NCBI GenBank assembly: GCA_051294375.1
Contig: JBJCIZ010001673.1
Location: 1 to 55,008 of the forward strand
Direction of reading: 5' to 3'
Source of the DNA: Paraspadella gotoi
Lineage: Eukaryota; Animalia; Chaetognatha
Length of the DNA stretch: 55,008 nucleotides
Shown here: positions 5,840 to 41,292 of the stretch, piece after piece
Numbering within the stretch: the first letter of the stretch is position 1
Layout: each line of letters opens with the position of its first letter
The notes under the pieces: generated by a model
What the model saw: only the letters and a program-made list of their open reading frames with translations
The model's database searches: none
Told to the model about the DNA's origin: nothing
Translations under genes and position numbers: made by a program

Positions 5840-8800
5840 ATGGGATTACCGCCCATATTTAAAACTTTTCTTCTCCAAAAAGCAACTGATCCAGAACATG
5901 TGGTTAGAATATCCTGCAATGAAGAAATTAAATGCAGTGACAGTTTTTGCTCTCCTAATTCCTACTTCACACGATTAAGTAAGTAACTATTTTATGAAAG
6001 TATATAAAAGTAAAGATAATGGTCTTTTTTCCCTATTTAGGATTGAATTACGAATCTCTGGAAACGTTTTCACATGATTATACTTCAAAGCTAAAAATTA
6101 ATTCATCAATTCATCTTCAAGTTGATATCGATCAAGGTCCTCCTCTCGTTTCTGGCAAATGTACTCGTATTGATAAATGTATCAATGACAAAGGTAACAT
6201 TTATATTTGCTGTTAAAAAAATCTGAAATATAATTCTACTAATCTTTTTAGGAGAATCATTAAACGATTTACAACAAAAACACTTTTGTCTGTTTAACCT
6301 GCAGTCACATCGTACTGAAGATATAGATCTTAGATGTCCCCAATATGGCTGGAACAGGTTAAAAATTGTTTTGAAATTATTATTTGATTATAATATTATT
6401 TTTGAATAAAATTATGCATTTTAGGCATCTTTTTTTAGATTATCTTTGTGGTGTAATCCTTTCGTTTCGTTGTGTAATGATTAGAAGAGTTTGAAATTAG
6501 TTTTCAACAATTAGTTGAAAACTAATTTCAAACTCTTCTTAGATTATCTTGTATTTTTTAATATCAAGGAAATATAGAAATATAACTGAACATAATTTTA
6601 ATTTTTTTTTTCAGGGAAGAATCCAAAATGCGTTTGAAATCCGGCAGCAATCGTACCCAATCATCTACATTATCCAACGTTTCTGGAGCTGCAAATATTC
6701 TATATCGTGTTCTTCATGGACCTTTGCAAGATCGAATCATTGCTCGTAATAGATCAAAGTTGATGTTTTGTCCTTTTGGATGCCAAAATGGAAAATGTTC
6801 TTAGTAAGTTTAATCTCTGATTCATTATATTGGATTTATTCAATCTTTATTTAAGCTGATTTAATTAATCTGATTCGTTCAATTTCTGATTCATTCAATC
6901 TTTGAATAGTTCAATCTCTTATTAATTGATATCTGATTCTTTTAATCTCTGATTCCTTCAAACTCTGATTCCTTCAGATCTCTGATTCCTTATCTGATTT
7001 TTGATCTTTGATTCCTTCAATCTTTTAATCTGTCAATCTTTTGATTTCTTGATCTCTTATTTCTGGATCTCTGATTTCTGGATTTCTGATTCCTCGATCT
7101 CTGATTCCTCGATCTCTGATTCCTTGATCTCTGATTCTTTGATCTATGATTTTTTTATCTGTGATTCATTGATTTATGATTTATTGATTGATTTATGATT
7201 CATTGATTGATTTATGATTCATTGATTGATTTATGATTCATTGATTGATTTATGATTCATTGATTGATTTATGATTCATTGATTGATTTATGATTCATTG
7301 ATTGATTTATGATTTATTGATTGATTTATGATTCATTGATCTGATTCCTTGATCTATGATTCTTTCATCTGATTCATTTATCTATGATTCTTTGATTTAT
7401 GATTCTTTGATTTATGATTCATTGATTTATGATTCATTGATTTATGATTCATTGATTTATGATTCATTGATTTATGATTCATTGATTTATGATTCATTGA
7501 TTTATGATTCATGATTCATTGAATTATGATTCATGATTTATTGAATTATGATTCATGATTCATTGAATTATGATTCATGATTCATTGAATTATGATTCAT
7601 GATTCATTGAATTATGATTCATGATTCATTGAATTATGATTCATTGAATTATGATTCATTGAACTATGATTCATTGAACTATGATTCATTGAACTATGAT
7701 TCATTGAACTATGATTCATTGAACTATGATTCATTGATCAATAATTCATTGATCAATAATTCATTGATCTATGATTCTTTGATCTGTGATTTTTTCATCT
7801 ATGATTCTTTCATCTGAATCATTGATCTGTGATTCCTTGATCTGTGATTCCTTGATCTATGATTCCTTGATCTATGATTCTTTGATCTGTGATTCTTTGA
7901 TTTATGATTCATTAATTTATGATTCATTGATTTTTGATTCATTGATTTGTGATTCATAGATCAATGATTCATTGATCTATGATTCATTGATCTATGATTC
8001 CTTGATCTATGATTCTTTGATCTGTGATTCTTTTATCTATGATTCATTGATTTATGATTCATTGATTTATGATTCATTGAACTATGATTCATTGAACTAT
8101 GATTCATTGATTTATGATTCATTGAACTATGATTCATTGATTGATTTATAATTCATTGATTGATTTATGATTCATTGATTGATTTATGATTCATTGATTG
8201 ATTTATGATTCATTGATTGATTTATGATTCATTGATTGATTTATGATTCATTGATTGATTTATGATTCATTGATTGATTTATGATTCATTGATTGATTTA
8301 TGATTCATTGATTGATTTATGATTCATTGATCTATGATTCATTGATCTATGATTCTTTCATCTATGATTCTTTCATCTGATTCATTGATTTATGATTCTT
8401 TCATCTATGATTCTTTCATCTATGATTCTTTCATCTATGATTCATTGATCTATGATTCATTAATCTGTGATTCTTTGATTTATGATTCTTTGATTTATGA
8501 TTCATTGAATTATGATTCATTGAACTTATCATGACTATGATTCATTGACTATGATTCATTGATCTATGATTCATTGAACTATGATTCATTGAATATGATT
8601 CATTGAACTATGATTCATTTGAACTATGATTCATTGAACTATGATTCATTGAACTATGATTCATTGAACTATGATTCATTGAACTATGATTCATTGAACT
8701 ATGATTCATTGAACATGATTCATTGAACTTGATCATTGCTATGATTATGACTATGATTCTGATCTGATTCATTGATTCATGATTATGATTCATGATTCAT

Positions 8801-11800
8801 TGAATTATGATTCTGATTCATTGAATTATGATTCATGATTTGATTCATTGAATTATGATTCATTGAATTATGATTCATTGAATTATGATTATTGATTATG
8901 AATTCATTGAACTATGATTCATTGAACTATGATTCATTGAACTATGATTCATTGAACTATGATTCATTGAACTATGATTCATTGATTTATGATTCATTGA
9001 TTTATGATTCATTGATCAATAATTCATTGATCTATGATTCTTTGATCTGTGATTTTTCATCTATGATTCTTTCATCTGATTCATTGATTTATGATTCCTT
9101 GATTTATGATTCCTTGATCTATATCTATGATTCTTGATCTATGATTCTTGATCTATGATTCTTGATCTATGATTCCGATTTATGATTCATCGATTTATGA
9201 TTCATCAATTTATGATTCATCGATTTTAATGATTTCATCGATTTATGATTCATCGTTTATGATTCATCGATTTATGTTCATCGATTTATGATTCATCGAT
9301 TTATGATTCATCGATTTATGATTATCGATTTATGATTCATCGATTTATGATTCATCGATTTATGATTCATCGATTTATGATTCATCGATTTATGATTCAT
9401 CGATTTATGATTCATCGATTTATGATCATCGATTTATGATTCATCGATTTATGATTCATCGATATTATATGATTCATCGATTTTATGATTCATCGATTTA
9501 TGAATCTCTGATTCCCTGATCTCTGATTCCCTGATCTCTGATTCCCTGATCTCTGATTCCCTGATCTCTGATTCCCTGATCTCTGATTCCCTGATCTCTG
9601 ATTCCCTGATTCTGATTCCTGATCTCTGATCTCCTTGATCTTGATTCCTGATCTTCTGATTCCTTTTGATCTCTGATTCCTGCATCTTCTGCATTCGCGT
9701 TGATCTCTTGATTCCCTGATTCCTTGATCTCTGATTCCTTGATCTCTGATTTCTTGATCTCTGATTCCTTGATTTCTGATTCCTTGATCTCTGATTCCTT
9801 GATCTCTGATTCCTTGATCTCTGATTCCTTGATCTCTGATTCCTTGATCTCTGATTCCTTTGATTTTTGATCTCTGCTTCTTTAAATATACAATTTGTTT
9901 TATCTCTGATATCTTTAATCTCTGATTTGATTTGTTGAATCTCTAAATTAATTTAATCTCAGATTTTTTGAATCTTTGATTTCTTTCTATGGTACAACCA
10001 ATATAAAAATTTCCAAATTATTTTTTAAAAAAATGAATAAAAGATTCTTTATTTAAATATAAGATTAGAACATATTACTAATGATATATTATAAAATTAT
10101 TTTTAAATGATTTACTCAAGGTTGACATTATACAATGTTTATTTATAGTTCCGAAAACTGGTCAAAACCACAAGAAATGGTCTCATTAAATGAACTTGGT
10201 GGTTTTTCTCGACTCAAATTTCATTTGTCGCGTGCTCACAAAATGTCACCAAAAACCATCAGTGCTATCATGCCTTTCATTATCATACTTTCGGATCAAC
10301 TGCTTTATGATCATGTGAATGAGGAAATAAGGTTTGTTTTTGTATTTTTAAAGATAAAACTAGTAGTGTTTATGCACAATTTGTGTTTTGACTTTTTTTA
10401 TTAAATTAATAATTGAGAGAAAACAAAATTTTTATTTGTTTCTAACAACGATTTTTGTATTAAAAAATGGACAGGTTTTGACTCTCATTTTGAGTTCTAT
10501 CAGGGCTTCATAAGCATTAATAACGACTTAAAAACAAACATTTTAAATTTTTGCTAAAAAATCTTTGTTTGCAACAAATAAAAACTTTTTTTAAAGATAA
10601 AAATATTTTATTATTTTTTTATTAACTTGTTTATAAAAATATTATTATATTGTTTATCAAAATTTTTAAGCATTAATAAATTTTTAGATTCAATGGAGAA
10701 TAATTTAGGGAGAAAAATTTTTAATATAATGATAAATGAGTTAGCTTTTTTAATGGTAGTACTTTGTTAGGGTTGTAATATTTAAATACCAAATTTTTAA
10801 TTCTCAGTTTGGTGGAATCCCAAGGATTATATGTAACCTCGAGTATGTCAAAACTATTTTCCAAAGAATATTTACAAAATCATCTATGCCATTCAGAATC
10901 AGATATCCCTGCCGTTTACAAAGTTGTCATTGATGGGCAATTTCAATATCCATTTCGACTTCCACAATCCAAATCTGGGGGTGTATTAGTTGATTCTGAT
11001 ATTGAGGAAGAAATTGAAAAATCAGATAATCAGGAATCTATTAAAAAAAATCAAATTCCTCAAAAAGAAGTTCGTGAAACTAACTCTCAATTCAGTTTAA
11101 GTGATTCAGATAATCAATTGATGCCCCAGGCAACTTCATTTCTGAAATCTTACCCATCAACAGAGCATTTAATTTTCATAGCTAAATCTTGGCGGGAAAA
11201 TAATTTTTTAAAAGATCTTTATTTAGATCACAGATGGCCTATTACCAAAAAATTATTGTTAATAGAAAATCCTTCTCTTACTGAAATCAATTTAATTGAT
11301 AATGAAATTGAATTATCAAGCAAAATTAACATGGAATGTTTAAAAATTTCTGATGGTGTCAAATTAGTGTCTCGCGTTAATTTAATATTGAAAATGAAAA
11401 AGAGCAATTACCAAACGTTTATTGGTCAATTGATTAGAAAACACGAACTTGCTTCTCATGGTTCATTGCTTGATCTGTCAACTGATTTGATTTTGTCACC
11501 CATTAGATGTTCCCACTATTCCACGCCTAAAGACAAAGAAAATGTTGAAACCCTTGACTTAAACCCTCAAATCATTCAATCTTCCAGAGAAATTTCAAAA
11601 ACACTAATGAGAGATAAAGAAAGATTGTTACAAATTAGTGGACGACCACAATCATCAAATGAAAAGGCAAATTTATTTATATTGAAAGAAATTAAATATC
11701 CATTTGTTGTCCTTCCTTGTAAAGCCGATGGCCATTGCGGTTATCATGCAATAATTAGACATTTTCTTCCTCACTACAATATTGAAAATGAAACCTATAT

Positions 11801-14690
11801 TCAACGAATACTTGACCTGAGATTTTCCGTCAAAACATTTAATCTTGGACATTGGAATGTTATGATTGAATCACAACTTTCTATTGATTATCCTTTTCTA
11901 TCTGGCTCAGGTGTCAATATGAAGAAAAAGTATGTTGAGAAATTTTCTTCATTAGAAATTTCTGAGTTAGACTTTGTTGCTTTGAGTATCATTCTTGAAG
12001 TTAAGTTTATAATTATAAGGATATCAATTACCGAGGAGGTATCCATTCATGAAATTTTTCATTTATCGTTATCTAAGGATCAGCTTCATTCCATTTTTTT
12101 GCTCCAAACAGGAGGAGATGACAATGCTGTTGAATATCGATCACATTATGATAGCCTTTTTCCAATCACAATCATTAATGAAAAAAATTTACAATCAGTA
12201 TCTGCAGAAGAAATAAAAAGAGTTATTGAATCTCAACCCCTTGGCAATCGATTTGTTAGTTTTCATAATATAAATTTTTCTAATCCATTCATGTGCTCAG
12301 AGATAATGGCCCCGCTCGATAAGTTTGTTTTAATTCTTGAAGATGGCATTAAAGAAAACGTGCTTCAAGAAAAAGATGAATATTTGAATCAGCCTTCAGG
12401 TGAAAATTCTGAAACGATTCCAGAAACAATTTTACAGAATACAACTAGCATATCTGATGTGGACGATTTAATGGGGACTCAAATTAACATTGATTTCATT
12501 TCTGAGGTGCATAGTCTACCTAAAATTCGAAAGGAAGAAATAGTTCTACTTGCAAAACCCATCAATGAAACTAATTTAAGAAAATGCTCTTTAAAAGCTA
12601 ATTCTGATATATCACGCAATCAGTTAATTTTAAAAAGGAAACCTTCAAATTCAAATAAATCTCGTTCTATTAGTCAAGAGATTGAAAATGATTCTTCCCA
12701 AAAAATCATTATAGAAACTATTGTTTTGTCTTCAGATGAAAATTTTACTCCATTGGAATTTGATATTGCCACGTTGGATGTTAGAAACTCTGAAGATCAA
12801 AATAAAAACACATTTTCAAATTCAGAGAAAAATTCCCAATGTATTGATGAACTCAATTCTGATTTTTCAACTCATGAACCTGGTAATATTAAAAATACTT
12901 TTTACAAACAAGCTTTTACATCCCTTTTGAATGAAGTTAAAGTGCGTGAAAAAATAATTGAAAATTCTGACTGTGATTGTGAAGATATATCTGGATTATT
13001 TCAACCAAATAGAATTGATGAGCTATGGGATGATGTGTCAGAATCTCAATATAGGCCAGTTGAGAAAAGTATCCATCAAATTCTAAAGATAGATGAAAGC
13101 ATAAAAGTAATGATTGTTAATCTTGAATATGTTTCTGCTTTAGGATATCCAATATCATTTTCTTACCATTTGAAACAATATTGGCGAGTGAATCAAAGCA
13201 ATTTGAACACGGATGCTAAGAAAAAAGCTCATATACATGTTAGAACAAATTATATTATAAATAATGTTGCTCGTTTTTTGTCTTTTGTGCGTGAATCAAA
13301 AAAGTTAAATCCAGTCAGTGAAACAGACAAGCAAGCTCTTTTAGGATCTGTAGAAGATCTATCATTAATTTGTGAATTTCTTTTAGTACTTGTTAAAAAT
13401 GGGAGAAAAAAAGACAGTTACTTTTCTAACATATCATCTCTTAGAAAATTTAATTCTTTCTTAATGGCTGGAAAATGGTTAAATAAATCAACCAAGTTTG
13501 AAGAGAATTTTATAGAGATGAAAACCTTATTTCATCCAGTCAGCCAATTTCAAGCAGATCGCAGTGTTGCTAAAAAAAATAGCCGTGCACAGCAAATAGA
13601 AAATTTTTCAACTGAAGAATACTCCTTATTGTTTCATGGAGATGAGCTTGATGTTGTTGGAAAAATGTGGGCTGATCAAAATTTTAATGAATTAGAAGAT
13701 GTAAAGCCATTTGTAACTCTGGTAGTAGGAATAGTTTATTTGATTTTACTTTTTTTTAATGCATCAAGATCTTCTGATAATACATCAATCACTGTTGAGG
13801 ATGTAAACAAGGCCATCAAAGATTTTGAGAAAAAAACTGATTGTAACGACGAGTTTTTAAGTATTTTTGGTCATTTACAAAACAAAAACACACATTTTGT
13901 TAAACCAAATAAAAAGGCAATAACGTCACACTTTCGTGCCACATGTGTTATATGGCCAGTTTTCAAACTAAATTTTTTGAAAAATTATATGATTGGATTA
14001 AAAAATTTGAAAGAAAAATTGATAAATGATGATAAGGATGTTAACGAATCAGTTTTCTTTATAAATAGTTTGGGTCAATCACCATTAAGAAAGCAATTGA
14101 TAATGTCCTTAAAAACTGCTTGTGAAGCGCTTTGCATCACGTTTTCGCCCTCTTTTTGGAGAAGCTATGTTGAAACATCTTCTAAAGAAAGACAATTAGC
14201 AGCATCCTTAATAGATCCCATTGCTGCCAGAGCCAATAAATCTATGCATGCTGTGACAGAGCATATGCAACATTCTGAGTTATGTGCCGAAGAGAATTAT
14301 CGCCTAACAACCAAAAATATTAGTAAAACAGCTGGAACTTTTGTAAGTTCTCTTATTTCTTCTCCAACTAAACGCAAAGTTGTTGAGATAAGTGCTAATA
14401 TGAATGAAGAAAGTCAAAGTACTACTGTTAATGATGATGATGATTTCTCGGATTTTCGAACTTCACATTCCAAAAGTGATCAATCATTTACTGATCGGAT
14501 TACATCATATAAGAAAAAAAAACAAACGAGAAGAATAGAAGAAAATGAACTCAAATTGAAAGAAGAATGTCAATTTTATGGTATTGAGTATGTACCTCCA
14601 TCATTGAATGAAACATATTTACAGAGGAACAAACGACAACAAAAGTGTCGTTATCGAATCAAAGTGGCAAAGAGGAATATGGAACAATGA
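5840..14690 (+). CDS. Spliced tyrosine recombinase with an OTU-like cysteine protease domain and a C2H2-like finger (Crypton-like), ~1550 aa
   Basis: Phase-consistent GT-AG exons: 5840-5978, 6041-6193, 6252-6357, 6615-6803, 10149-10331, 10808-14690; the frame is also open back to an acceptor at 5811. OTU motifs: PCKADGHCGYHAI, ELDFVALSIILEV, SHYDSL. YR motifs: FNASRSSD (R), NKNTH (K), SPSFWRSYVET (R), EHMQHSELCAEENYR (H, Y). Finger: CPFGC...RLKFHLSRAH across exons 4-5. Confidence 0.85.
6483..6539. repeat. Perfect 26-bp-arm hairpin in intron 3 of the recombinase gene
   Basis: AGAAGAGTTTGAAATTAGTTTTCAAC-aatta-GTTGAAAACTAATTTCAAACTCTTCT. Confidence 0.9.
6810..9980 (+). repeat. 15-bp satellite array (GATCTATGATTCATT consensus) filling intron 4
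   Basis: Tandem 15-mers, which generate the spurious YDSLI ORFs. Sub-blocks carry 19-bp, 22-bp, CGAT and CCCT variants, and the edges are degenerate. Confidence 0.95.
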
Positions 14691-15354
14691 AAGTTTTTCA
14701 TCATCACAACATTTTTTGTTACTCAATTTGATTTTTGTACAGATTATGTCAGATTTGTACTGCCTTTGCACAGATTTTTTTCTGATAAATACTAAAGAAT
14801 AGTATTTTAAAAGGCTTGTTAGTATTTTAAAATTATGCCACCTTAATTTTTTGGTAAAACATTTTTAAAGTTACAAAACAAAATGATTCTTTATTTTGTA
14901 AAATAGATATTTAGCTGTTGTATTAAATGATATTAAAAATATGAGCAGAGAAAAACGTTAAAATTGTGTACAGAAACATTTACATGAGGTTTAAAAATAT
15001 GGTTTGGAAAACCGGAATTCACCATTATGTAAAATTTTTATAATAAAATTTTCTATTAAGAATGTCAAAAAAATAAATAATTGGGAAAAAAAGTTAGTGG
15101 TTAGTTCTGAGAATAATAATTTATGATTTAAAACATTTTTTTTTATTCTGCTAATATTCGCGAAAAAAAAATAAGATTCAGCAAAGTATTTTTAATTTAT
15201 GAATATTTGATTTTAAAATTTTGCTAAAATTCAGTTCAGGAAAATTAAAGATTTCTTTTCATTCAATACATGTCATGTATAAATCCTTCAAATATCATTT
15301 GAAATGTGAATAGAAAAGTAGCATTTCTTTGAAAATCTAGATAAAATGGTTTGT

Positions 15355-15630
15355 AGAGTCATTGATGCACTGTTTAATTATTGATTAAGAAACGTCGAAT
15401 TTGGGTTTAAGTGCAGTATTTTTTTTTAATTGAAAACTAATATTTCGATATTTTTTGACATCATTGTTCAGGGTATTTAATTAAGTGAAATGAGGAAAAA
15501 AAAAGCTAAGAAAGAAAGCAGGTGACAGTCAAACAATAGAACAGGGATAAAATGTTTGGTGTGGGTGGATTTATCCGTGTTCTATTGTTTGAATTTCACC
15601 TGCTCTCTATCACTCTTTCTCATTTTTAAT
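15355..15630. repeat. Foldback MITE-like repeat, copy 1 (direct repeat of 17670-17920)
   Basis: Starts AGAGTCATTGATGCACTG. Contains the internal hairpin GCAGGTGACAGTCAAACAATAGAACAGGGATAAA...TTTATCCGTGTTCTATTGTTTGAATTTCACCTGC. Confidence 0.75.
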
Positions 15631-15709: not shown

Positions 15710-17668
15710 TGATCATGAAATCATAGATTAAGGAATCATAGATCATGAATCATAGTTCAAGGAATCATAGATCAGGGAATCATAGATCAAGGTATCATAG
15801 ATTAAGGAATCAGAGATCAAGGAATCATAGCCCAATGAATCAGATATCAGGGAATCATAGATAAAGGAATCATAAATCAAAGAATCATAGATCATGGTTC
15901 ATGAAATCATAGATCAAGGAATCATAGATCATGAATCAAGGAATCAGATATCAATAAATCATAGATCACGGAATCATAGATCAAGGAATCATAGATCAAT
16001 GAATCAGAAATCAAGGAATCAGAGATTAAAGAATTAGATATCAATGATTCAGAGATCAATGAATCATAGATCATTAATAATAGATCAAGGAATCATAGAT
16101 CAATGAATCAGAAATCAAGGAATCATAGATCCTTGATCTCTGATACCTTGATCTCTGATTCCTTAATCTATGATACCTTGATCTATGATTCTCTGATCTA
16201 TAAATCCTTGATCTATGATTCCTTGATCTATGATTCCTTGATCTATGATTCCTTGATCTATCATTCATTGATCTCTGATGCATTGATCTCTGATGCATTG
16301 ATCTCTGATTCCTTGATCTCTGTTTCTTTGATTTCTTATTTCCTGATCTATGATTCTTTGATCTATGATTCATTGATTTAAGATTCATTGAGCTATGATT
16401 CATTGATCTATGATTCATTGATCTATGATTCATTGATCTATGATTTATTGATCTATGATTTATTGATCTATGATTCATTGATCTCTAATTCCTTGATCTC
16501 GGATTCCTTGATCTCTGATTCCTTGATCTGTGATTCTTTGATCTATGATTCATTGATTTATGATTCATTGAGCTCTGATGCATTGATCTCCGATTCCTTG
16601 ATCTCTAATTCTTTGATCTCTGATTCCTTGATCTCTGATTCCTTGATCTATGATTCCTTGATCTATGATTCTTGATCTATGATTCATTGATCTATGATTC
16701 ATTGATCTATGATTCATTGATCTATGATTCATTGATCTATGATTCATTGATCTATGATTCATTGATCTATGATTCATTGATCTATGATTCCTTGATCTCT
16801 GATTCATTGATCTCTGATTCATTGATCTATGATTCTCTGATTCCTTGATCTATGATTCCTTGATCTATGATTCCTTGATCTAAGATTCTTTAATCTCTGA
16901 TTCCTTGATCTATGATTCCTTGTATATGATTCCTTGATCTCTGATTCCTTGATCTCTGATTCCTTGATCTATGGTTCCTTGATCTATGGTTCCTTGATCT
17001 ATGGTTCCTTGATCTATGATTCCTTGATCTATGATTCATTGATCTCTGATTCCCTGATCTCTGATTCCTTGATCTCTGATTCCTTAATTTATAATTCATT
17101 GATCTATAATTCATTGATCTATGATTTCTTGATCTATGATTTCTTGATTTATGATTTCTTGATGTATGATTTCTTGAATTATGATTTCTTGATCTATCAT
17201 CATAGATCAGGAAACATAGATCAAGGAATCATAGACCAATGAATCCGATATCAAAGAATCATAGATCAAGGAATCATAGATCATGGAATCATAAATTACG
17301 GAATCATAGATCAAAGAATCATAGATCAAGGAATCATAGATCATGAATCATAGATCATAGATCATGAATCATAGATCATGAATCAGAGATCAAGGAATCA
17401 TAGATCAAGAAATCATAGATCAAGAAATCATAGTTCATGGAATCATAGTTCTTGGAATCATAGATCAATGAATCATAGATCATTGAATTATATATAGATC
17501 AATGAATCATAGATCAATGAATCAGAAATCAAGGAATCAGAGATTAAAGAATTAGATATCAAGGAATCATAGATCAAGGAATCATAGATCAATGAATCAG
17601 AGATTAAAGAATTGGATATCAAGGAATCATAAATCAATAAATCATAGATCAATGAATCAGATATCAAG
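15710..17668. repeat. 15-bp satellite array with two orientation switches (- / + / -)
   Basis: AATCATAGATCAAGG orientation at 15710-16130, reversed at 16130-17197, and back again at 17198-17668. Confidence 0.95.
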
Positions 17669-17669
17669 G

Positions 17670-18025
17670 TAGAGTCATTGCATGCACTGTTAAATTATTG
17701 TTTAAGAAATGTCGAATTTGGGTTTAAGTGCAGAATTTTTTTTTTTATTGAAAACTAATATTTCGATATTTAATTAAGTGAAATAAAAAAAAAGCTAAGA
17801 AAGAGAGCAGGTGACAGTCAAACAATAGAACAGGGATAAAATGTTTGATGGGGGTGGAGGGATTTATCCGTGTTCTATTGTTTGAATTTCACCTCCTCTC
17901 TCTCACTCTTTCTAATTCTTAGCTCTCTTTTTTTTCCTCATTTTACATTTTTAAATACCCTAAGCACTAACGAGTAAAAAAAAATTAAAATATTTGATTT
18001 CAATAAAAATAATACTGCACTTGAA
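17670..18025. mobile_element. Foldback MITE-like repeat, copy 2 (more complete)
   Basis: Direct repeat of 15355-15630. The outer arms AAGTGCAG...TTATTGAAA and TTTCAATAA...CTGCACTT enclose the same inner hairpin. Confidence 0.7.
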
Positions 18026-19065: not shown

Positions 19066-19400
19066 TTGATGCAGGTTCAAGTTTGGAAACTCTTTTTAGT
19101 CCAACTATTTTTGAATTGTTTAGATCAAAATAATCTATCCTTCAAAGTCATGAACAAAACAAAATCAGTAGTTATTGACATGTCTGAAATAATAAGGACA
19201 AGATTTAAATATAAGAGTGGCATTATTTATTGTTGTACAACAAAAGAATGTGAATCTGTTTCAAAAAAATTAAATAATATTAGTTTGAAATGTTTATCCT
19301 TCCATTCTAAGCTCCCTTCTCCAGAGAAAGAAGAAGTCTTGCAAAAGTGGCAAAGTAATGAAATTAGGATTGTTGTTAGGACAATTGCTTTTGGAATGGG
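19066..19400 (+). pseudogene. RecQ-family helicase fragment (HelicC region), apparently isolated and degenerate
   Basis: LDQNNLSFKV (cf. FNRPNLxYxV), SGIIYCCTTKECESVSKKL (motif IV), SFHSKL (cf. YHAGL) and KWQSNEIRIVVRTIAFGMG (motif V). It ends at a G|GTAAAT donor. No Walker A, DEAH or downstream exon was found. Confidence 0.8.
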
Positions 19401-19774
19401 TAAATAAGAAATGATTTTATTTATGTTAAGAACATAATAATTTTTATATTCTGTTTAAAGCAAATTTTAAATTCCCCATCAAAAGTTGTTAAAATTGTTT
19501 TAAAGATAATCAAAATCATCAATAATTAAAATCATAGAAAATTATTTAAAAAAATTTTATAAGTAGGTTAAAAAATTTAAAAAAATATATTTACTGTACA
19601 AAAATTAATTTTCAGTTTAAAATATAGGTTTTTTAAAAAAGTTATATTTTTTTTCATCAACTTCTTATGAAAAATCCATATCTGCATATGAATCTTATAA
19701 AAATTTTTTTGAAATTTTAATATTTATAGGCTTAATACTATATATAAGTATAGTATACTGCGTAAATTGATATT

Positions 19775-21817
19775 TCTTCGAGAGAGTACCCAAGTAGTAC
19801 CCAACCAGTACCCAAGGAAAAAAAATGCTATATAGAGATATTTCTTCAAGAGAGTACCCAAATAGTACCCAAACAGTACCCAAGAAAAAAAAATGCTATA
19901 TAGAGATATTTTTTCGAGAGAGTACCCAAGTAGTACCCAACCAGTACCCAAAGGAAAAAAATGCTATATAGAGATATTTTTTCGAAAGAGTACCCAAGTA
20001 GTACCCCAACCAGTACCCAGGAAAAAAAATGCCTATATAAGATATTTTTTCGAGAGAGTACCCAAGTAGTACCCAACCAGTACCCAAAGGAAAAAAAATG
20101 CTATATAGAGATATTTTTCGAGAGAGTACCCAAGTAGTACCCAACCAGTACCCAAGGAAAAAAAATGCTATATAGAGATATTTTTCGAGAGAGTACCCAA
20201 GTAGTACCCAACCAGTACCCAAGGAAAAAAAATGCTATATAGAGATATTTTTCGAGAGAGTACCCAAGTAGTACCCAACCAGTACCAAGGAAAAAAATGC
20301 TATATAGAGATATTTTTTCGAGAGAGTACCCAAGTAGTACCAACCAGTACCCAAGGAAAAAAAATGCTATATAGAGATATTTTTCGAGAGAGTACCCAAG
20401 TAGTACCCAACCAGTACCCAAGGAAAAAAAATGCTATATAGAGATATTTTTTCGAGAGAGTACCCAAGTAGTACCCAACCAGTACCCAAGGAAAAAAATG
20501 CTATATAGAGATATTTTTTCGAGAGAGTACCCAAGTAGTACCCAACCAGTACCCAAGGAAAAAAAAATGCTATATAGAGATATTTTTCGAGAGAGTACCC
20601 AAGTAGTACCCAACCAGTACCCAAGGAAAAAAAAATGCTATATAGAGATATTTTTTCGAGAGAGTACCCAAGTAGTACCCAACCAGTACCCAAGGAAAAA
20701 AAATGCTATATAGAGATATTTTTCTTGAGAGAGTACCCAATTAGTACCCAACCATTACCCAAGGAAAAAAAATGCTATATAGAGATATTTTTTCGAGAGA
20801 GTACCCAAGTAGTACCCAACCAGTACCCAAGGAAAAAAAAAAATGCTATATAGAAGATATTTTTTCGAGAGAGTACCCAAGTAGTACCAACCAGTACCCA
20901 AGGAAAAAAAATGCTATATAGAGATATTTTTTCGAGAGAGTACCCAAGTAGTACCCAACCAGTACCCAAGGAAAAAAAATGCTTAATAGAGATATTTTTC
21001 GAGAGAGTACCCAAGTAGTACCCAACCAGTACCCAAGGAAAAAAATGCTTATATAGAGATATTTTTTCGAAGAGTACCCAAGTAGTACCCAACCAGTACC
21101 CAAGGAAAAAAAATGCTATATAGAGATATTTTTTCGAGAGAGTACCCAAGTAGTACCCAACCAGTACCCAAGGAAAAAAAATGCTATATAGAGATATTTT
21201 TTCGAGAGAGTACCCAAGTAGTACCCAACCAGTACCCAAGCGAAAAAAAAATGCTATATAGAGATATTTTTCGAGAGAGTACCCAAGTAGTACCCAACCA
21301 GTACCAAGGAAAAAAAATGCTTATATGAGAAATTTTTTCGAGAGAGTACCCAAGTAGTACCCCAACCAGTACCCAAGGAAAAAAAATGCTATATAGAGAT
21401 ATTTTTCGAGAGGATACCCAAGTAGTACCCAACCAGTACCCAAGGAAAAAAAATGCTATATAGAGATATTTTTTCGAGAGAGTACCCAAGTAGTACACCA
21501 ACCAGTACCCAAGGAAAAAAATGCTATATAGAGATATTTTTTCGAGAGAGTACCCAAGTAGTACCCAACCAGTACCCAAGGAAAAAAATGCTATATAGAG
21601 ATATTTTTTCGAGAGAGTACCCAAGTAGTACCAACCAGTACCCAAGGAAAAAAAATGCTATATAGAGATATTTTTTCGAGAGAGTACCCAAGTAGTACCC
21701 AACCAGTACCCAAGGAAAAAAAATGCTATAAGAGATATTTTTTCGAGAGAGTACCCAAGTAGTACCCAACCAGTACCCAAGGAAAAAAAATGCTATATAG
21801 AGATATTTTTTCGAGAG
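19775..21817 (+). repeat. ~68-bp satellite, about 30 units
   Basis: Unit GAGAGAGTACCCAAGTAGTACCCAACCAGTACCCAAGGAAAAAAAATGCTATATAGAGATATTTTTTC, with a period of 67-68 bp and three GTACCCAA motifs 11 bp apart. Confidence 0.95.
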
Positions 21818-21914
21818 AATTTTTGAAGAATTTTCACTCAAATTTCAAAAAGGTTTTGTTAAAAAAAGGAATGGTTGGGGCTATTAGGCAGGGTTTTAAG
21901 GGGGATTTTGCTTC

Positions 21915-22505: not shown

Positions 22506-22552
22506 GATAATCTAGTTCCATATTATATATTATTATATTTATATTATGATTT

Positions 22553-22990
22553 TGTGGAGGTATATTCACACCGCCTCACGTCCACCATCGTTCAGCCAGA
22601 TCCATTTTCTCAGAGGGGGAACACACCATCCCAGGCGTAGTGTTCCATCCATCTGCGTTGGCAAAGCGAGACAATCCTAGGGTAGCCGCGCCAGTGACTG
22701 GATGCGTCACTGAGGGTCGGAAGCCTCCAAAGCCAACAGTGAGATGCCCCATCCCAATGGGCATTACAGGCAACTCGGCTGTTGCCATAAGTGGTGAGCC
22801 CTACTATCGAACACGCAACTTTTTAAGGGTACTCTACGACAAATTCCTATACCCTGCCAACTTTGGGTACGCTACAACAAAAGCCTATGCCCCTGGGGTA
22901 TGCTATGACAAACGCCTATGCCCCCACAACTCGCGCTTTTTCTCTCTTTCCCACTATGGTAACAGTCTTGTCAGACACCTCTCAGGCTTG
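22553..22990 (+). mobile_element. Truncated miniature LTR element, family B: 5' LTR (22553-22789), PBS and short internal region
   Basis: The LTR TGTGG...GCCATA is the reverse complement of the solo copy at 27693-27947. It is followed at 22792 by TGGTGAGCCCTACTATCGAACACGCAAC, resembling the complement of a tRNA-Trp 3' end. No 3' LTR was seen. Confidence 0.75.
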
Positions 22991-22999
22991 AACATTTAT

Positions 23000-23345
23000 C
23001 TTTGATTTCTTGATCTATGATTCATGATCTATGGTTCATGATCTATGATTCATTGATCTATGATTCATTGATCTATGATTCATTGATCTATGATTCATTG
23101 ATCTATGATTCATTGATCTATGATTCATTGATCTATGATTCATTGATCTATGATTCATTGATCTATGATTCATTGATATATGATTCCTTGATCTATGAAT
23201 CATAGATCATGGAATCATAGATCAAGGAATCATAGATCAATGAATCCTAGATCAAGAAATCAGAGATCAATGAATCAGAGATCAAAAATCATAGATCAAG
23301 GAATCATAGATCAAGGAATCATAGATCAAGGAATCATAGATCAAT
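23000..23345. repeat. Third 15-bp satellite block, switching + to - at a palindromic junction
   Basis: The junction GATCTATGAATCATAGATC lies at ~23190-23208. Confidence 0.9.
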
Positions 23346-23799: not shown

Positions 23800-24700
23800 A
23801 TTTTAATTAAAATTCTAAAAGTAAGGAATGAACAACATTATACTAATGAACATTTGTGTATAAAAAAATTTATTATAAATTTTACAGTTTACGCAGTAGG
23901 CTATATACATAATACTAATCCAATAAATGTAAAAATTTAAAAAAAAATTTTTTAAAGATTTTTTGACAGATTTGAATTCGTCGTGAAAAGTTGATATAAA
24001 GAAATTAACTCTTTTTTAAAAATTCTTTCATTAAGTTGGTCAAATATAAGAAAAACATATATATATATATATTTATATGTTAAATATAGTTTTTTTAATT
24101 TTTAAACCACCTCATGAAATAATTTTTAAAAATGATTTCTATTTTCTTTTATCAACTTTTGACAAGGAATTCAAATCTGCAATCAAAAATAAAAAAGCTT
24201 ATTTTCAAATTTTTAAATTTTATAAGGATAGTACTATATATATATATCCTACTACAAAAATTTAAAAAATAAAATTAATTTTTTTACAAATTAATATTCA
24301 CTGATGGTTAGGCCAGAACAGGTTAAAAAATAAAAGTTTTCTCAAATAAATAATGGTCAAGTGACTGTTAGAGAATATAAAAATACAAATAATTTTTAAA
24401 ATTTATCTTATTCATAAGTGTATGGAAGGATTTAAAAATTATTTTATTACTATATAAAGTAAAAATTTTTAAAAATTTTTAAAAATTTTTAATAGATTCT
24501 GATAGAGCTTTAAAAGTTAGATAAAAGTTATTATTACAACTTTTTAAAATTTTTTTTTAGTATTGATGAAAATTTAAAAAACCATAAAAAACCATAATGA
24601 TAATTTTTTAAGGTTTTTTATTTTTAACTACTTTATTGTCAAAATTTTTAAAAATTATAATACTAACTTTTTTTCAACTTTTCAAGCTTTATAAGAATCC
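23800..24700. mobile_element. AT-rich non-autonomous DNA-transposon-like repeat
   Basis: 24090-24310 (ATCAACTTTTGACAAGGAATTCAAATCTGCAATCAAAA...TTTATAAGGATAGTACTATAT) matches 49880-50070. Inverted pieces occur at 23860-24060 and 50130-50500. Confidence 0.55.
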
Positions 24701-25019: not shown

Positions 25020-25760
25020 TGTTTATAAATACTAATTGCTTCAAATATTGCTTCAGAAATTTAAATTATTATATACTTAAGCTGAGACTTAGTTTTAAAC
25101 TTATACTTGTATTATACTTATTGTATTATATACTTATACTTGTACACTTGTATTTAAGCCTAACTTAGCCTTAACCCTAACTTGCCCCTAATCCTAAATT
25201 ATCCAAAACCCGAACTAACCCTTTAGCCCTAAATTATCCCTAACCATAATTTACCCCTAACCTTTATAAATACTAATTGGTTCAAATATTGCTTCAAAAA
25301 TTTAAATTATTATATACTTAAGCTGAGACTTAGTTTTAAACTTATACTGTATTATACTTATTGTATTATATACTTATACTTGTACACTTGTATTGAAGCT
25401 TAACTTAGCCTTAACCCTAACTTGCCCCTAATCCTAAATTATCCAAAACCCGAACTAACCCTTTAGCCCTAAATTATCCCTAACCATAATTTACCCCTAA
25501 CCTTTATAAATACTAATTGGTTCAAATATTGCTTCAAAAATTTAAATTATTATATACTTAAGCTGAGACTTAGTTTTAAACTTATACTGTATTATACTTA
25601 TTGTATTATATACTTATACTTGTACACTTGTATTTAAGCCTAACTTAGCCTTAACCCTAACTTGCCCCTAATACTAAATTATCCAAAACCCGAACTAACC
25701 CTTAACCCTAACTTACCCTTAACCCTAAATTATCTCTAACCCTAACTTACCTTAGTCTAC
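25020..25760. repeat. Three tandem ~240-bp units ending in degenerate CCCTAA tracts
   Basis: TTATAAATACTAATTG recurs near 25023, 25264 and 25504. Each unit has GCTGAGACTTAG and AACCCTAA-rich ends. Confidence 0.85.
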
Positions 25761-27660: not shown

Positions 27661-27692
27661 CATTTTACTACACCAAAAACGATATAAGATAT

Positions 27693-27947
27693 TATGGCAA
27701 CAGCCGGGTTGCCTGTGATGCCCATTGGGATGGGGCATCTCACTGTTGGCTTTGGGGGCTTCCGACCCTCAGTGACGCCTCCAGTCACTGGCGCGGTTAC
27801 CCTAGGACGGTCTCGCTTTGCCAACGCAGAGGGAAGTCGTTAGGACTGTGGATGGAACACTACGCCTGGGATGGTGTGTTCCCCCTCTGAGCCAATGGAT
27901 TTGGCTGACGGATGGTGGACGTGAGGCGGTGTGAATATACCGCCACA
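27693..27947 (-). mobile_element. Solo LTR, family B
   Basis: TATGG...CCACA flanked by the 4-bp TSD ATAT. It is the reverse complement of 22553-22789. Confidence 0.8.
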
Positions 27948-27961
27948 ATATAATCTTGAGT

Positions 27962-28195
27962 TGAAGAGACAGTAATTATTGATATGTGTTAATGACAGAA
28001 CCGTTCAATATAAGCAGTCCCTGAGCTTCGGATCAGGCTGTAACACCATGTTACTGGCTGGTTAAGCGCCCCGTCCCTCTTAACTGCTAGGCAGCCACTG
28101 GGCTAGAACCCCGGACCTTTGGGTTGGGAGGCGAATGACTTGCCTCCGGCACCAATGGCCGCTGATGAACGGTTGGTGGATTTTAGTCTACCATA
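27962..28195 (-). mobile_element. Solo LTR, family A (tRNA-containing)
   Basis: Reverse complement of the LTRs at 40645-41292, flanked by the 4-bp TSD GAGT. Confidence 0.9.
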
Positions 28196-29621: not shown

Positions 29622-32600
29622 TTGCTAGGTCGTTATCTTCACCTCATGAGGGATGGCTGCGGGTCGAGAACGAAGTCTGAAGCTTGTCAAATCGTCTCAG
29701 AAGAAGTGATCGCCCTTTGGGAGAAGGCCAACGTTCCTAGTATTAGTTTTCGTATAACAAAAGTAAAGGTTGAAAAACAGATAGATAGGTATTTCAAATT
29801 ACGTAAGTTTAGAGACAAAGAGGTGAAACAAGTGTGGTATACCACCGAGTTGGGAAAATGGGTCAAAGATATGAACGAGGTTTTTGACATAAAAATGGCT
29901 GATCACCTGATTAAAAATCATGAAAAGCGTACTAATATTCCGTACGGGAAAGAGGAGCAGGATTTTTATCAGGACCAGGTTACGAAGTCGTTCAACATGT
30001 CCATTCGCGGCGTTGATCGGAATGGAAGAAGAAGAATGATGCGAAATTAGAGAAGCAGAAAAGGTGAATAACAGTTATATAAAATTTTATTTTTAGAATT
30101 ATTATAATTTTTTTTTATTTAGTCAAGACGATCGCGATCGCAAATGGGCCGAGGAAAAAGAAGATGTGATGTCACCTTATGTGGTCGAGCCAGTCGCAGA
30201 TTTTTCTCTTTCCGATGAGTATCAAAATGAGAATAAAGACCAGATAGTTGAACGTGTCGTTTTTACACGAAATAAAAAAAGGCGTTTAGATGAGTGTGGG
30301 GAAATTGAAACCGAAAAGTCAAAAGATTTTGATCTAAGAGTTCGAGAGTCATTCATGAAATACGGAATTGTGTGTATGACTTTTTAATGCACTTTGTTTC
30401 AGATGCTTCAGCTTCCAACAATCAAGCCGTGCTTGCAGCAAAATTTTTTGCCAAGCATATCCTTGATGTTGATTGGTTGACGCAAGAAGAAGCAATTGCA
30501 GAAAAAAAAAAGGCGAAAGAGGAGGGCCGAGAGTTACCGATTCAGTTTTATAATTATGTCCTACCCTCAAATCAAGCACTAAATCGAATGAGGGATCAAT
30601 ATGCAAAAGCTACTGAGCAGAGCATTGCTAATCTTCTATTAAATTTAGATGAAACGGACACGGTGACTCATCATGGTGACAGTACAACGCGAAGCATGAC
30701 GGGGAAGCTATTCACTGCGCCACTAAGTATTGGGGATACGACGAAATTGTCTCTTCCAATCCAGCAGTTGAGTAGTGAAACCACAGAAGATATAGCTGAT
30801 GTGTATGAGTTGATATATAAACGTATGTCAGTGTTAACGGGTATACCATCAGTAAATTTTTTTGACAAACTTACGGCTTTTATGACGGATTCCGCCGCTG
30901 ACATGAATAATTTGGTACAAATTTTAAAAAATCGTTTAAATTCTGAGCATGAACCGTTTCACCTAAAATGCGTACTGCACACTGTACTTGGCTTCTCAAA
31001 CACTGAACTTAATGTAATATCTGGTTTAGAGCAATGTATTGGTCCAAGTAAAATTTATGGTACATCCAAGTGTCACGATACATCAAACGTTTGTAAAAGT
31101 AGTATTATCGCTATTTTGAAATTAATCTCACCCCAGTTTCAGCACAAACCGTACAACAAAAAGTCTGAGTTCGATGCTCTACTTTCTGAAACTGATTCTA
31201 ATAAAAAAAACGATGCCTTTTCATTAAGAAGTCATAGGTTTGGTGCTGTAGAAAAATCCGCCACTGTAGTTTTGTATCATTGGGATGATGTGCGAAATCT
31301 TTGTGATAGAATTGAAAATCGTAATGATCTTGTCATTTTTGTCAGGACGATTTTGGAGTGCGGTTTTATCAAAATCGTTCTGTTGTCCCTTGGTCTTATT
31401 GGATTGCATCTCGTGGAGCCCTTCATTGAATTGGTAACAAATTCAACTCATATCGAATTGCTTAGTTCCCTTCCATTGCTTTATTCGGAGTTGTCTAATT
31501 ACAAACAATTCGCTTCACGGGCATTGTCAACCACGCAAGCAGCTATTCCTCCTTTACAGCTTTCATTCACTGAGGTTTTAAATAAAAATGTTTATCCTAA
31601 ACGTTGGTTAGAGTCTTTGCAGTTGGAGATTGACGGGCTGGACAGCGAGACCGAGGAAACTCTGAAGAACATACTGGGCCTGATGAGTCACCACTGCGCA
31701 AAGACCTTACTACGGCAAAGAGGGGATGCTTACGGATTTTCAGCTAACTCAGAAAACAAAGGTTTTAATGAGTGATAAAGTTTTTATTTGCCTTTTATTT
31801 GGTTAATATACGGAATTTTATTATTTTTAAACCATACATACTGTTAAATTTTTTTACAGATGATGTTTCTCAAATTCCGGCACCAAAGTTAAAGCAACTT
31901 CCCGTGACGAATCTGGCGGCAGAAAATTCGTTTGGTCTTATTGATAGCTACCTCACTCGACTTCGGACTACAAGTGTAAAGTGTGTTTCAGACCGTCTCG
32001 TAATTCGTAGCGGTGGTATAAGTATCTATGGGACAACAGCTGCTCGTGAAGTAAGAAAGTTCAGTGCTGAGTTAGATTCGCTGCAAAAACNNNNNNNNNN
32101 AAAACAAAAACAGAAAAAAATTGATGCTGTTTCATCTTTAAAAGGGAAGGCAGCACTTTATCAAAAAAAGAGACTAAACCTTTTAGATAATTGTAAAAAG
32201 CATAATGGGCCTTTTTCTTCGTCTTCTGATGTTGAAAAATTTCTTGAAAGGTGCGAAATCAATGGAGTCTCGGATTTGGAGGTCAAAAAGGCGCTGAAGT
32301 CGGAGGTTTGCTACGCCCGCGAAACTCTGACGAAGAAACCAAAGACTGACGACGTTTTCCGGATCCGAGATCGTATCACAAATAAAGACCTTTCGGTGCA
32401 GCAATATTCTAGTAATCTAATTGCATTGTTTTCTAACATTTTAGCGGTGGNNNNNNNNNNTGTTGACGATATTAAAATTGCGATTGAAAAAGCTACTGCT
32501 GCCGCTGGTATAGAAGTCATCTGTGGTGAGGGGGAACCATCTAGTGAGGACAGCCCTTTAGAGGTTGACCCGGTTTTAGTTTCTGAGGTAGGCCCATTTG

Positions 32601-32965
32601 AGGCAGACCCAAAGGAAACAACTGATTTAATTCACAGTCCTTTTCTTTTTGAGAGCAGTGATATGGTAAAATATCAATTTGTTGCGGTTGCTGTAAGCAA
32701 GGAAAATGAAAAATCATGGTGTTTAGGAATGATTGATGATGTTTTTTCTTTTGATACAGCTCAGGTTAGTCTTTTCATTCCAATTGGGAATCAGCGAGTG
32801 GCAATTTTCTCCCTCCACAAGAAGACGAGGCTCTGACGCTGGACAAATATCATTTTGTACCTATTCTCCCACTCGTAACTACTAGTAACTATAAGGGACG
32901 AAGAAGTTTTTATTGTTATAACCATGAATGAAATTGATATTATTCTCGGTGGTTGTAATGCGTAA
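29622..32965 (+). pseudogene. Divergent hAT-like DDE transposase gene, spliced, with several small frameshifts
   Basis: Exons ~29622-30063, 30123-31761 and 31860-32965. Motifs: LWEKANVP..VFDI (N-terminal), HGDSTT (D), MTDSAA (D), CVLH (CxxH), RSHRFG, TNLAAENSFG (E). Frame breaks occur near 30020, 30352 and 32803-32930. Shared 3' flank runs to ~33746. Confidence 0.8.
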
Positions 32966-37240: not shown

Positions 37241-37849
37241 TCAAAGATTTTCACAACAACTTTTAAGAACAGCATTTACTAAATGATCAAGCCCAAATGG
37301 GTTTAAATGTAACCCATCCATTGCAACAAAATCCATGTCTTGATAAAATAAGTCTGGGGCGACTTTAAAAATCGATCTTTCATGACAATCACAAGAAATA
37401 TTGTAAGAATTGAAAATTCTAATTACTTCATTTACATCACGAATATAATAACTATTCTTTGATTCTGGAAATCGGCTGTTCGGACACAAATTAACTTTTC
37501 GTGGGCAAAGAGGAACAACAAATATTTTTAAATTTGCATATTGTTTTAAAACATTGCAAACCAACATTTTAATTTTAAATGAAAGATTTGTAGCCAATTG
37601 TGATGGTACTTCATCGGACGATTTTATTAGCTGACTTATATCATTTTGTCCCATACTTAAGATCAATATAGAATGTTTAGAAGACAAATGATAATTCAAA
37701 TATCCATTTGGGCCAATCAGGTCTTCGGTGAGGGCTCCCGAGAAAGAATGTAACTCGATTTCATCAATGGGAGAATATGACGTAAGTTGTTTGAAATGCT
37801 CATTAGTCAATTTCTTTAGAATACTGTCAGAATAGATGAGGGCACTCAT
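37241..37849 (-). CDS. SGNH/GDSL hydrolase-fold protein of the type carried by mobile elements
   Basis: Block I LIYSDSIL, block II SFSGA, block III LSMGQNDI, LCPR, block V DGLHLNPFG. ATG at 37849; the ORF is open to 37915. Confidence 0.8.
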   Translation of the reverse strand: MSALIYSDSILKKLTNEHFKQLTSYSPIDEIELHSFSGALTEDLIGPNGYLNYHLSSKHSILILSMGQNDISQLIKSSDEVPSQLATNLSFKIKMLVCNVLKQYANLKIFVVPLCPRKVNLCPNSRFPESKNSYYIRDVNEVIRIFNSYNISCDCHERSIFKVAPDLFYQDMDFVAMDGLHLNPFGLDHLVNAVLKSCCENL

Positions 37850-38538
37850 CTTCTCGTAAATGTATCTAAACTCACTATTTATACAACTATCTATTAAAAT
37901 ACGATCGATTTCCAAAAGCGAAAATAAATATAAACAAATTTAAAAATGATGGTACAATAAAATTAACCAACGAATTCAGTGTGAAGGAGACCTACGAAGG
38001 ACAGAGAAGACGTGAGGATGTACGGATGGCGGAGTAGATGCACGGAGGACGTTGCGAACGTAAGGATGACAGAGTAGACGCACGGAGTAAGCACAAAGAG
38101 ATGGCCAATATTGAAGAGATGGCTGAAGCGGAAATGGATTAGGGACAATCGGCACAGTTAATTAAAAATTTTCTATCTGATAAAAAAACGACTTTATAAA
38201 AAAAAACTGGTTACTAGCCAAAGGAGTTAAGGATAGTGTTCAGCCGACTAAGTGCCTTATTCACATATAGACAATTACATGTTCGATATAAGTGTGGTTT
38301 TTTATCATTACAATTTTAGATATCTTGAATTTTCAATAAATGACTTCTTAACAAGAATGATGTCTAATATCTAATTAGAAAACTAGGGCAGAAAGCAACT
38401 TTTAACCTTGTGTTGAATAGATTCTCCCTCTATTTCCAGAAAACAACACTAACATCCCTCTCCCCATTACATTTTAAAAGAATATACCTTATATAAAGAA
38501 TATAATTAAATCTAATATTTTCCACTTCATTGATAGGG

Positions 38539-40414: not shown

Positions 40415-40644
40415 GTAGGGATCAGCAAGAATAACCTAGAAAAATTGGACCTGGAATTTGATTCAAGCCTACATCAGCGCTTTTAGAATTTGGTTTCTGG
40501 AAACATTGAGAGTGAGAAATAAAGTTCCCAACAAAGATTTTAGAAATGGTTAATATGTGAGGACAGATTATGTTTTGCCAGAGAGATAAGTTGAGGGAAA
40601 GGAAATGAAATTTGGAGAGTAAGAAAGAGAGAGAGAGAGAGGGG

Positions 40645-41292
40645 TATGGTGGACTAAAATCCCCCAACCGTTCATCAGCGGCCATTGGTGCGGAGGCAAA
40701 TCTATCGCCTCCAAACCAAAGGTCCGGGGTTCTAGCCCGGTGGTCGCCTAGCAGTTTAGAGGGACGGGGCACTTAACCCGCCTGTAACTGGGTGTTACAG
40801 CCTGATCCAAAGCTCAGGAACTGCTTATATTGAAACGGTTCTGTCATTAACACATAATAATAATTACCGTCTCTTCATTGGCGAGCCCGACTTCGAACAC
40901 AACAGCAACAACAATTTCAGGCGACATGCCTCAACCTGGCGATGCACATTCCGCCCACAACACATCAGGCGACATGCCTCAACTTGGTGACAAACTTTCC
41001 ACCAACAACAATTCACTGAAGAGACGCAACAGACTTCTCCCTACGGGAGGGGGGGATGTATGGTGGACTAAAATCCCCCAACCATTCATCAGCGTCCATT
41101 GGTACCGGAGGCAAATCTATCGCCTCCAAACCCAAAGGTCCGGGGTTCTAGCCCGGTGGTCGCCTAGCAGTTTAGAGGGACGGGGCACTTAACCCGCCTG
41201 TAACTCGGTGTTACAGCCTGATCCGAAGCTCAGGGACTGCTTATATTGAACAGTTCTGTCATTAACACATGATAATAATTACTGTCTCTTCA
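40645..41292 (+). mobile_element. Complete TRIM (miniature LTR retrotransposon), family A, with a tRNA-derived segment in each LTR
   Basis: LTRs 40645-40877 and 41059-41292 (TATGG...TTCA). PBS TGGCGAGCCCGACTTCGAACAC at 40879. PPT GGGAGGGGGGGA at 41045-41056. TSD GGGG. The tRNA-like segment at 40678-40747 has a GCGGCCA/TGGTCGC stem, an A-box-like TGGTGCGGAGG and a B-box-like GGTTCTAGCCC. Confidence 0.9.

Follow-up and report, generated by a model that had tools for sequence, protein, structure and literature searches.

A predicted OTU protease-tyrosine recombinase fusion gene in the chaetognath Paraspadella gotoi, a candidate mobiliser of a eukaryotic DNA element

This report concerns a stretch of 55,008 nucleotides (nt) from the chaetognath Paraspadella gotoi (GenBank assembly GCA_051294375.1, contig JBJCIZ010001673.1, positions 1 to 55,008 of the forward strand), which as a whole is called the window hereafter, and in particular one gene in it, at 5840-14690 on the forward strand. 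The gene is real and unbroken, is predicted to have six exons and encodes, in one chain of 1550 amino acid residues (aa), both a predicted OTU deubiquitinase and a predicted tyrosine recombinase (YR), together with a predicted C2H2-like finger and two further conserved modules. On balance, this protein likely mobilises a family of eukaryotic DNA elements that has no name as yet; the element would be mobile, although the present copy may no longer be so.

The stretch is A+T-rich and laden with repeats. When the GT and AG sites around the proposed ends were paired exhaustively, just two open six-exon combinations were found, one codon apart at the exon-3 acceptor, and the longer of them (5840-5978, 6041-6193, 6252-6357, 6615-6803, 10149-10331 and 10808-14690) gives the 1550 aa. 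Its parts are the following.

5840..5978, forward strand: predicted exon 1, aa 1-46, His/Cys-rich, with the ATG at 5840 in the context ACAATGG
6041..6193, forward strand: predicted exon 2, aa 47-97, preceded by an intron of 62 nt
6252..6357, forward strand: predicted exon 3, aa 98-132; the alternative acceptor 6255 is likewise open
6615..6803, forward strand: predicted exon 4, aa 133-195, with the CPFGC half of the C2H2-like finger at 6769-6783
6804..10148, forward strand: predicted intron 4, 3345 nt, chiefly a 15-bp satellite at 7042-9860 (about 195 copies)
10149..10331, forward strand: predicted exon 5, aa 196-256, with the HLSRAH half of the finger at 10222-10239; its acceptor is the weakest and the exon can be skipped in frame
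10808..14690, forward strand: exon 6, a single open frame of 1293 codons containing both enzyme domains

The satellite of intron 4 recurs in the window at 15711-17669 and 22993-23342. Both enzyme domains lie inside one 3.9-kb exon and therefore the fusion is independent of the splice model. An earlier note on this DNA, made from the letters alone, had proposed six phase-compatible exons giving about 1550 aa, and the open frame bears this out; the junctions it predicted, 6803/10149 and 10331/10808, are both among the open combinations, and the motifs it named were found where it had placed them, that is, the two finger halves as listed above, DGHC at 11727-11738, HYD at 12144-12152, the recombinase Arg at 13767, FWR at 14154-14162, HMQHS at 14262-14276 and the Tyr at 14298.

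Relatives were collected with phmmer, using aa 537-1447 as the query against 1.84 billion representative proteins (E<=0.001), which gave 41 proteins, 22-61% identical; none of the 10 looked up has an informative name. Twenty-six of them cover the recombinase only, 11 the OTU domain only and three a conserved "QYPF" module plus the OTU domain, and one, P0008, combines the QYPF module and the OTU domain with the beginning of the recombinase, ordered as in the window protein. Most are short pieces and some are without catalytic residues, as would be the case for decayed mobile copies. Whole-protein searches of Pfam, PDB sequences and PHROGs gave nothing useful, and word-indexed protein searches gave no relative, one of them covering only proteins of 2647-5000 aa and hence being uninformative. 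A single pattern match in a JGI metagenome was dismissed, as it came without protein similarity. Outside the two enzyme domains, the alignments define four parts of the protein.

10809..11081, forward strand: conserved QYPF module, aa 258-348, common to P0008, P0006, P0013 and P0019
11175..11537, forward strand: second conserved module, aa 380-500
12306..12965, forward strand: poorly conserved linker rich in S/T/N/Q and acidic residues, about aa 757-976, between the OTU domain and the recombinase
14529..14678, forward strand: conserved basic C-terminal motif L..eC....ieY.PP...E....R..R...R, matching P0002 and P0005, and P0003 over a longer alignment

These relatives bear on the first five exons. 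It is quite unlikely that the fusion is real and exons 1-5 are wholly or partly wrong, in which case the protein would start near exon 6 or use other upstream exons and the split finger would be due to chance. Such an error is suggested by the weak acceptor of exon 5 (10149), which did not pass a strict splice filter, by the lack of any match to aa 1-256 among 42 proteins, the relatives having been gathered with a query without that part, and by the four relatives with the QYPF module, all of which start no more than about 6 residues away from the exon-6 boundary. These starts also fit a conserved intron with an upstream exon. The exon chain, however, exceeds chance expectation: under the strict filter the upstream non-satellite DNA yields a four-exon chain of 587 nt, compared with a mean of 44 nt and a maximum of 344 nt in 200 local shuffles. 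In addition, the G+C content of exons 1-5 is 33-38% against 19-26% in the introns, and exon 5 brings the second half of the finger, so that the finger halves stand on adjacent exons. Furthermore, similarity to P0008 already begins at aa 258, whereas exon 6 has its first Met only at aa 270, and thus an upstream exon is likely needed. A further upstream coding exon was tried and rejected: joining acceptor 5811 to the best donor, 5654 (GTAAGG), creates a stop, and that exon would be untranslated.

The C-terminal part is assigned to the tyrosine recombinases mainly through a structural model, in which the following features are recognized.

13098..13550, forward strand: predicted SAM-like helical domain for core binding, matched by N-terminal domains of integrases over model residues 45-195
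13563..14360, forward strand: predicted tyrosine recombinase catalytic domain, from the model fold and conserved residues
13767, 13776, 13884, 14160, 14271 and 14298, forward strand: conserved catalytic positions R1244, D1247, K1283, R1375, H1412 and Y1421, respectively
14151, forward strand: S1372, which occupies the position of the His of HxxR

AlphaFold2 with a 27-row alignment gave a mean confidence (pLDDT) of 80.6 for the recombinase part, and of 35 from the single sequence only. Both predictions are of the recombinase part. In Foldseek, tyrosine recombinases take all of the top 10 PDB rows. A wide structure search of 48,161 chains placed recombinases, topoisomerase IB or fold relatives in the first 23 of 50 rows, the first unrelated row having Z 5.4; the highest-scoring match is XerA (Z 8.8, root-mean-square deviation (rmsd) 15.7, 235 residues aligned), and the others include Cre (Z 8.1, rmsd 7.0, 253 aligned), the XerD catalytic domain (Z 6.8, rmsd 3.9, 144 aligned) and, for the core-binding domain, 3nrw (Z 6.8, rmsd 2.8, 99 aligned). 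In a second structure comparison the first 38 of 50 rows are recombinases or fold relatives, with Cre at Z 8.9 (rmsd 7.3, 248 aligned); rows of SroF, MrpR, Ndc10, ALOG and CLOLEP_01837 were counted as recombinase fold relatives on our own assumption.

Among the rows covering each position, the window protein included, R1244 is found in 11/12, D1247 in 11/12, K1283 in 11/11, R1375 in 14/15, H1412 in 12/13 and Y1421 in 13/13; of the seven active-site residues that PMC13465315 lists for YRs, six are present. From their order and the secondary structure, these positions probably correspond to the catalytic residues of Cre. By sequence, no PDB recombinase was retrieved with the YR family profile, and the only NCBIfam matches were to XerC, below threshold and in 3 of 41 rows. 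Among the Atlas neighbours of this part, a cluster at 0.95 carries PF00589 on 15% of its members. Taken by its modelled fold and by R, K, R, H/W and Y in this order, the C-terminal part is a predicted member of the tyrosine recombinase superfamily, as the earlier note had called it, and the enzyme is predicted to be active and apparently catalytically intact.

The OTU call rests on sequence, and the domain is as follows.

11700..12173, forward strand: OTU-like cysteine protease domain, with D564-G-x-C567 at 11727-11738 and S-H703-Y-D705 at 12141-12152

Conservation is 11/13 for D564, 12/13 for G565, 11/13 for C567, 9/10 for H703, 10/10 for Y704 and 7/10 for D705. The Pfam OTU family PF02338 is matched by 2 of 16 family rows and Otubain, weakly, by 2 of 16; the family profile aligns along the Cys loop with OTU structures from viruses (E 0.002). 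Language-model neighbours of this part in the Atlas, at 0.94, are PF02338 clusters, and the 10 best named ones all fall in one family or clan. With the conserved motifs, the weak Pfam and PDB matches and these neighbours, the earlier assignment holds and the domain is a predicted OTU deubiquitinase. The triad, however, had been read to include the His of DGHC, and while the D-G-x-C and HYD motifs stand, that His is not conserved and was dismissed; by established OTU chemistry the triad is likely to be C567, H703 and D705.

Some neighbours of the two domains are viral. A stranded integrase from a phaeovirus-like or nimavirus-like large DNA virus, an enzyme for putting viral genomes into host chromosomes, which has gained introns and whose OTU domain counters ubiquitin-based antiviral defence, would have giant-virus OTUs among its neighbours, as is seen here, and also a cluster (0.96) like EsV-1-213, the phaeovirus integrase (PMC11890097); the viral structure match of highest probability is a Feldmannia virus protein (probability 0.98, E 0.045), and nimaviral YRs bear a C2H2 finger and are in some cases multi-exon (PMC10871703). 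The best Atlas neighbour of the recombinase, however, is an unnamed eukaryotic cluster (0.98), no viral Pfam family was found in the four other long frames tested and no viral core genes in the window, and IMG/VR scans, which reach only close relatives, gave no relative. Such a viral origin is given a low probability.

If the protein is instead the mobiliser of a eukaryotic element, it would work along the lines of Cre, Xer and Crypton biology. A set of four recombinase molecules would assemble on the short element ends, Y1421 would cut by way of a 3'-phosphotyrosine and a Holliday junction, and the element would be excised as a circle and then reinserted. The OTU domain, with C567, H703 and D705, would strip ubiquitin chains off its own protein or off host proteins present at the site, by which the complex might be shielded from proteasomal or ubiquitin-guided silencing, and the finger and the basic tail would contribute DNA binding.

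It is distinctly improbable that the element is of this kind and its OTU domain serves mainly self-processing, that is, cleavage of the polyprotein to release the recombinase or the N-terminal part with the finger. The long, poorly conserved linker between the OTU domain and the recombinase would suit such a role, and the vOTU in polinton polymerases has been proposed to cleave off the terminal protein (bioRxiv 10.1101/2024.03.18.585575), although that self-cleavage is itself only a proposal. The linker alignments, however, show no sign of a conserved cut-site motif, and ubiquitin is the substrate of the related transposon proteases that have been assayed to date, the Helitron-borne VTD deubiquitinases being active on K48 and K63 chains (PMC9741609).

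Several observations weigh against a mobiliser with both activities. As for the recombinase, no Foldseek match reaches E<=0.001, a profile comparison with Cre alone was negative (probability 0.1), and the structural scores are moderate (Z <9) for a mostly helical model, although the core-binding and catalytic domains of the model both match recombinases and the ranking is one-sided despite these scores. The HxxR His is found in 1 of 15 rows, with Arg in 7 of 15 and Ser in the window protein. Replacement of this His occurs in active tyrosine recombinases. As for the OTU domain, PF02338 matches with E 0.14 only (13.1 bits against a cut-off of 23.3). Both domains occur together in just one of the 41 relatives, P0008, whose frame stops before the catalytic Arg, whereas P0002 and P0003 comprise the whole recombinase and the basic tail with about 500 low-complexity residues and no OTU domain in the called frames, and so the OTU domain may not be universal in the family. 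Short contigs, introns and prokaryote-style gene calling can equally yield short relatives, and no DNA of a relative was found in viral contigs (IMG/VR), JGI metagenomes or prokaryote genomes, phages being negative as well. As for mobility, element ends and target repeats were not found in the window, which holds no second copy of the gene; no repeat >20 nt is shared between the flanks, shorter ones, such as the 4-6 bp direct repeats of some Cryptons, being indistinguishable from chance with a single copy. Moreover, five introns, one of them swollen by a satellite, equally suit a resident gene.

These last points would also suit a domesticated host gene, formerly mobile and now fixed, that serves the host in, for example, programmed rearrangement or site-specific chromatin deubiquitination, which is rather unlikely. 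Its 4.65-kb frame is intact while the other genes of the window are broken, one of its five introns holds the 2.8-kb satellite, the starts of the four relatives about 6 residues from the exon-6 boundary would agree with an intron conserved among them, and no element ends were found. Domesticated Crypton genes, however, mostly lose catalytic residues (PMC3212892), which are retained here, introns are also present in Ginger1 and in fungal YR elements, and the 10 relatives that were looked up all come from metagenome assemblies (nine from ENA and one from JGI) and none from a named proteome, each being an unnamed or hypothetical singleton or one of a pair.

Among known systems, Cryptons are the nearest in their way of working, being likewise based on a eukaryotic tyrosine recombinase without reverse transcriptase. 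The earlier note had called the gene Crypton-like, which stands in this sense; the CryptonA and CryptonF profiles, on the other hand, were not matched, ends or copies were not found, and the Pfam families DUF3504, GCR1_C, Ndc10-like and that of Starships (DUF3435) had no match at E<=1 with exon 6 or 26 relatives. Animal Cryptons, in a further difference from the present protein, are described as being without a C-terminal domain (PMC3212892). In oomycetes, CryptonF-2_PS encodes a C48/Ulp1 peptidase besides the YR, and in some CryptonS elements such a peptidase is the product of a second gene frame (PMC3212892, Kojima and Jurka 2011), whereas the protease here is OTU-type, N-terminal and in the same chain as the YR. 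The statement that eukaryotic DNA transposons with a YR alone are Cryptons had to be given up, as Starships are also of this kind (PMC11162782); their captains are large eukaryotic DNA-mobilising YRs but are fungal DUF3435 proteins with cargo. In Ginger1 and Helentrons (PMC2836005, PMC6431247, PMC9741609) an OTU or VTD deubiquitinase is fused to the mobiliser, often in intron-bearing genes, but those mobilisers are DDE integrases or Rep-helicases and not tyrosine recombinases. The nimaviral YRs of Kawato et al. (PMC10871703), compared here by description only, combine a C2H2 finger, a SAM-like domain and the YR, some in multi-exon genes as here, have, like the present protein, an incomplete set of the seven key residues, and have related non-viral animal genes; however, they sit in viral genomes, and OTU does not occur in the searched text of that paper. 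Cre, XerA/D/H and the integron and phage integrases (PDB 1f44, 1kbu, 5hxy, 5dcf) share the domain order, the fold and R, D/E, K, R, H and Y, but at 6-17% identity in structural alignments, and the present protein differs from them in the replaced HxxR His and in about 1000 extra N-terminal residues. With regard to DIRS, Ngaro and VIPER, no reverse transcriptase or RNase H family was found in the four other long frames tested.

A chain joining OTU and YR was not found described in the full-text literature, a collection in which subscription papers are mostly outside and Repbase is not included; this agrees with the earlier view that the fusion may be uncharacterised. Its novelty, however, was lowered by the precedents of a protease with a mobiliser, namely Ulp1 in CryptonF-2_PS and the OTU domains on Ginger1 and Helentrons. 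Therefore, the pairing of protease and mobiliser as a pattern is already known, and what is new is a recombinase family that is divergent and shares its chain with an OTU domain. A bolder reading, which is doubtful at present, makes the gene the first member of a so far unclassified superfamily of large eukaryotic elements based on a tyrosine recombinase, apart from Cryptons and Starships, with a spliced mobiliser carrying its own deubiquitinase and perhaps travelling with a RecQ helicase gene, of which one piece lies 4.4 kb downstream.

19111-19401, forward strand: exon-like RecQ-type helicase piece with motifs IV-V, ending at a GT donor (Pfam Helicase_C, E 6.5e-8)

The piece is 31% identical to E. 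coli RecQ aa 205-299 (E 5e-12), satellites and dispersed repeats separate it from the gene, and no further RecQ piece is present in the window. There is no non-repeat frame >120 aa between 14690 and 19400.

The gene adds a deeply divergent recombinase family, apparently intact in its catalytic residues, that Pfam, NCBIfam and PHROGs miss at their cut-offs, and one member of it is full-length and intact and can be used for expression and assay. As a mobiliser, it would also carry over to a third mobiliser class the repeated recruitment of deubiquitinases by eukaryotic transposons, and would allow a direct test of the reason; the activity of transposon OTU domains was described as untested as of 2022 (PMC9741609). 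In addition, a new eukaryotic site-specific recombinase might be useful in genome engineering if its target site is found.

Dispersed repeats and transposase-like frames abound in the window, in keeping with the mobiliser reading. Two long frames, 30333-32836 (forward strand) and 42096-45239 (reverse strand), have D...D...CxxH...E patterns, which we take to resemble those of cut-and-paste transposases; they match no Pfam family and cannot be aligned with each other, and the first has a deleted copy at 1-1047. A 232-aa frame at 37241-37939 (reverse strand) has a weak, below cut-off similarity to SGNH/GDSL hydrolases (E 0.001), a domain frequent in retroelement ORF1 proteins. A dispersed 16-nt motif, a 6-bp hairpin with a 3-nt loop, has 7 matches against 0.9 expected, one of them 116 nt upstream of the ATG of the fusion gene and another directly past the satellite of intron 4, and is possibly the end of a Helentron-associated or other non-autonomous element. 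Two families of dispersed repeats of about 240 bp have copies 87-95% alike; from A- and B-box-like words seen by eye the first may be a short interspersed element (SINE), and Rfam and tRNA searches of the window gave no match. An 83% direct repeat, 15354-15628 and 17670-17921, flanks arrays of the 15-bp satellite, whose orientation switches at about 16130 and about 17198. Of the foldback elements, that at 6483-6539 is a 57-nt near-perfect palindrome inside intron 3. The repeated features are listed below.

1952, 2529, 5709, 9988, 38712, 46243 and 50769: matches of the 16-nt hairpin motif
27962-28195, 40644-40877, 41058-41292 and 49365-49605: first family of dispersed repeats of about 240 bp
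22546-22790 and 27692-27954: second family of dispersed repeats of about 240 bp
6483-6539, 47543-47814, 49845-50366 and 23847-24300: palindromic or foldback elements
19769-21818, 25022-25741, and 51579-51870 and 52498-52965: minisatellites with units of 68 bp, 240 bp and 21 bp (each of the last two), respectively

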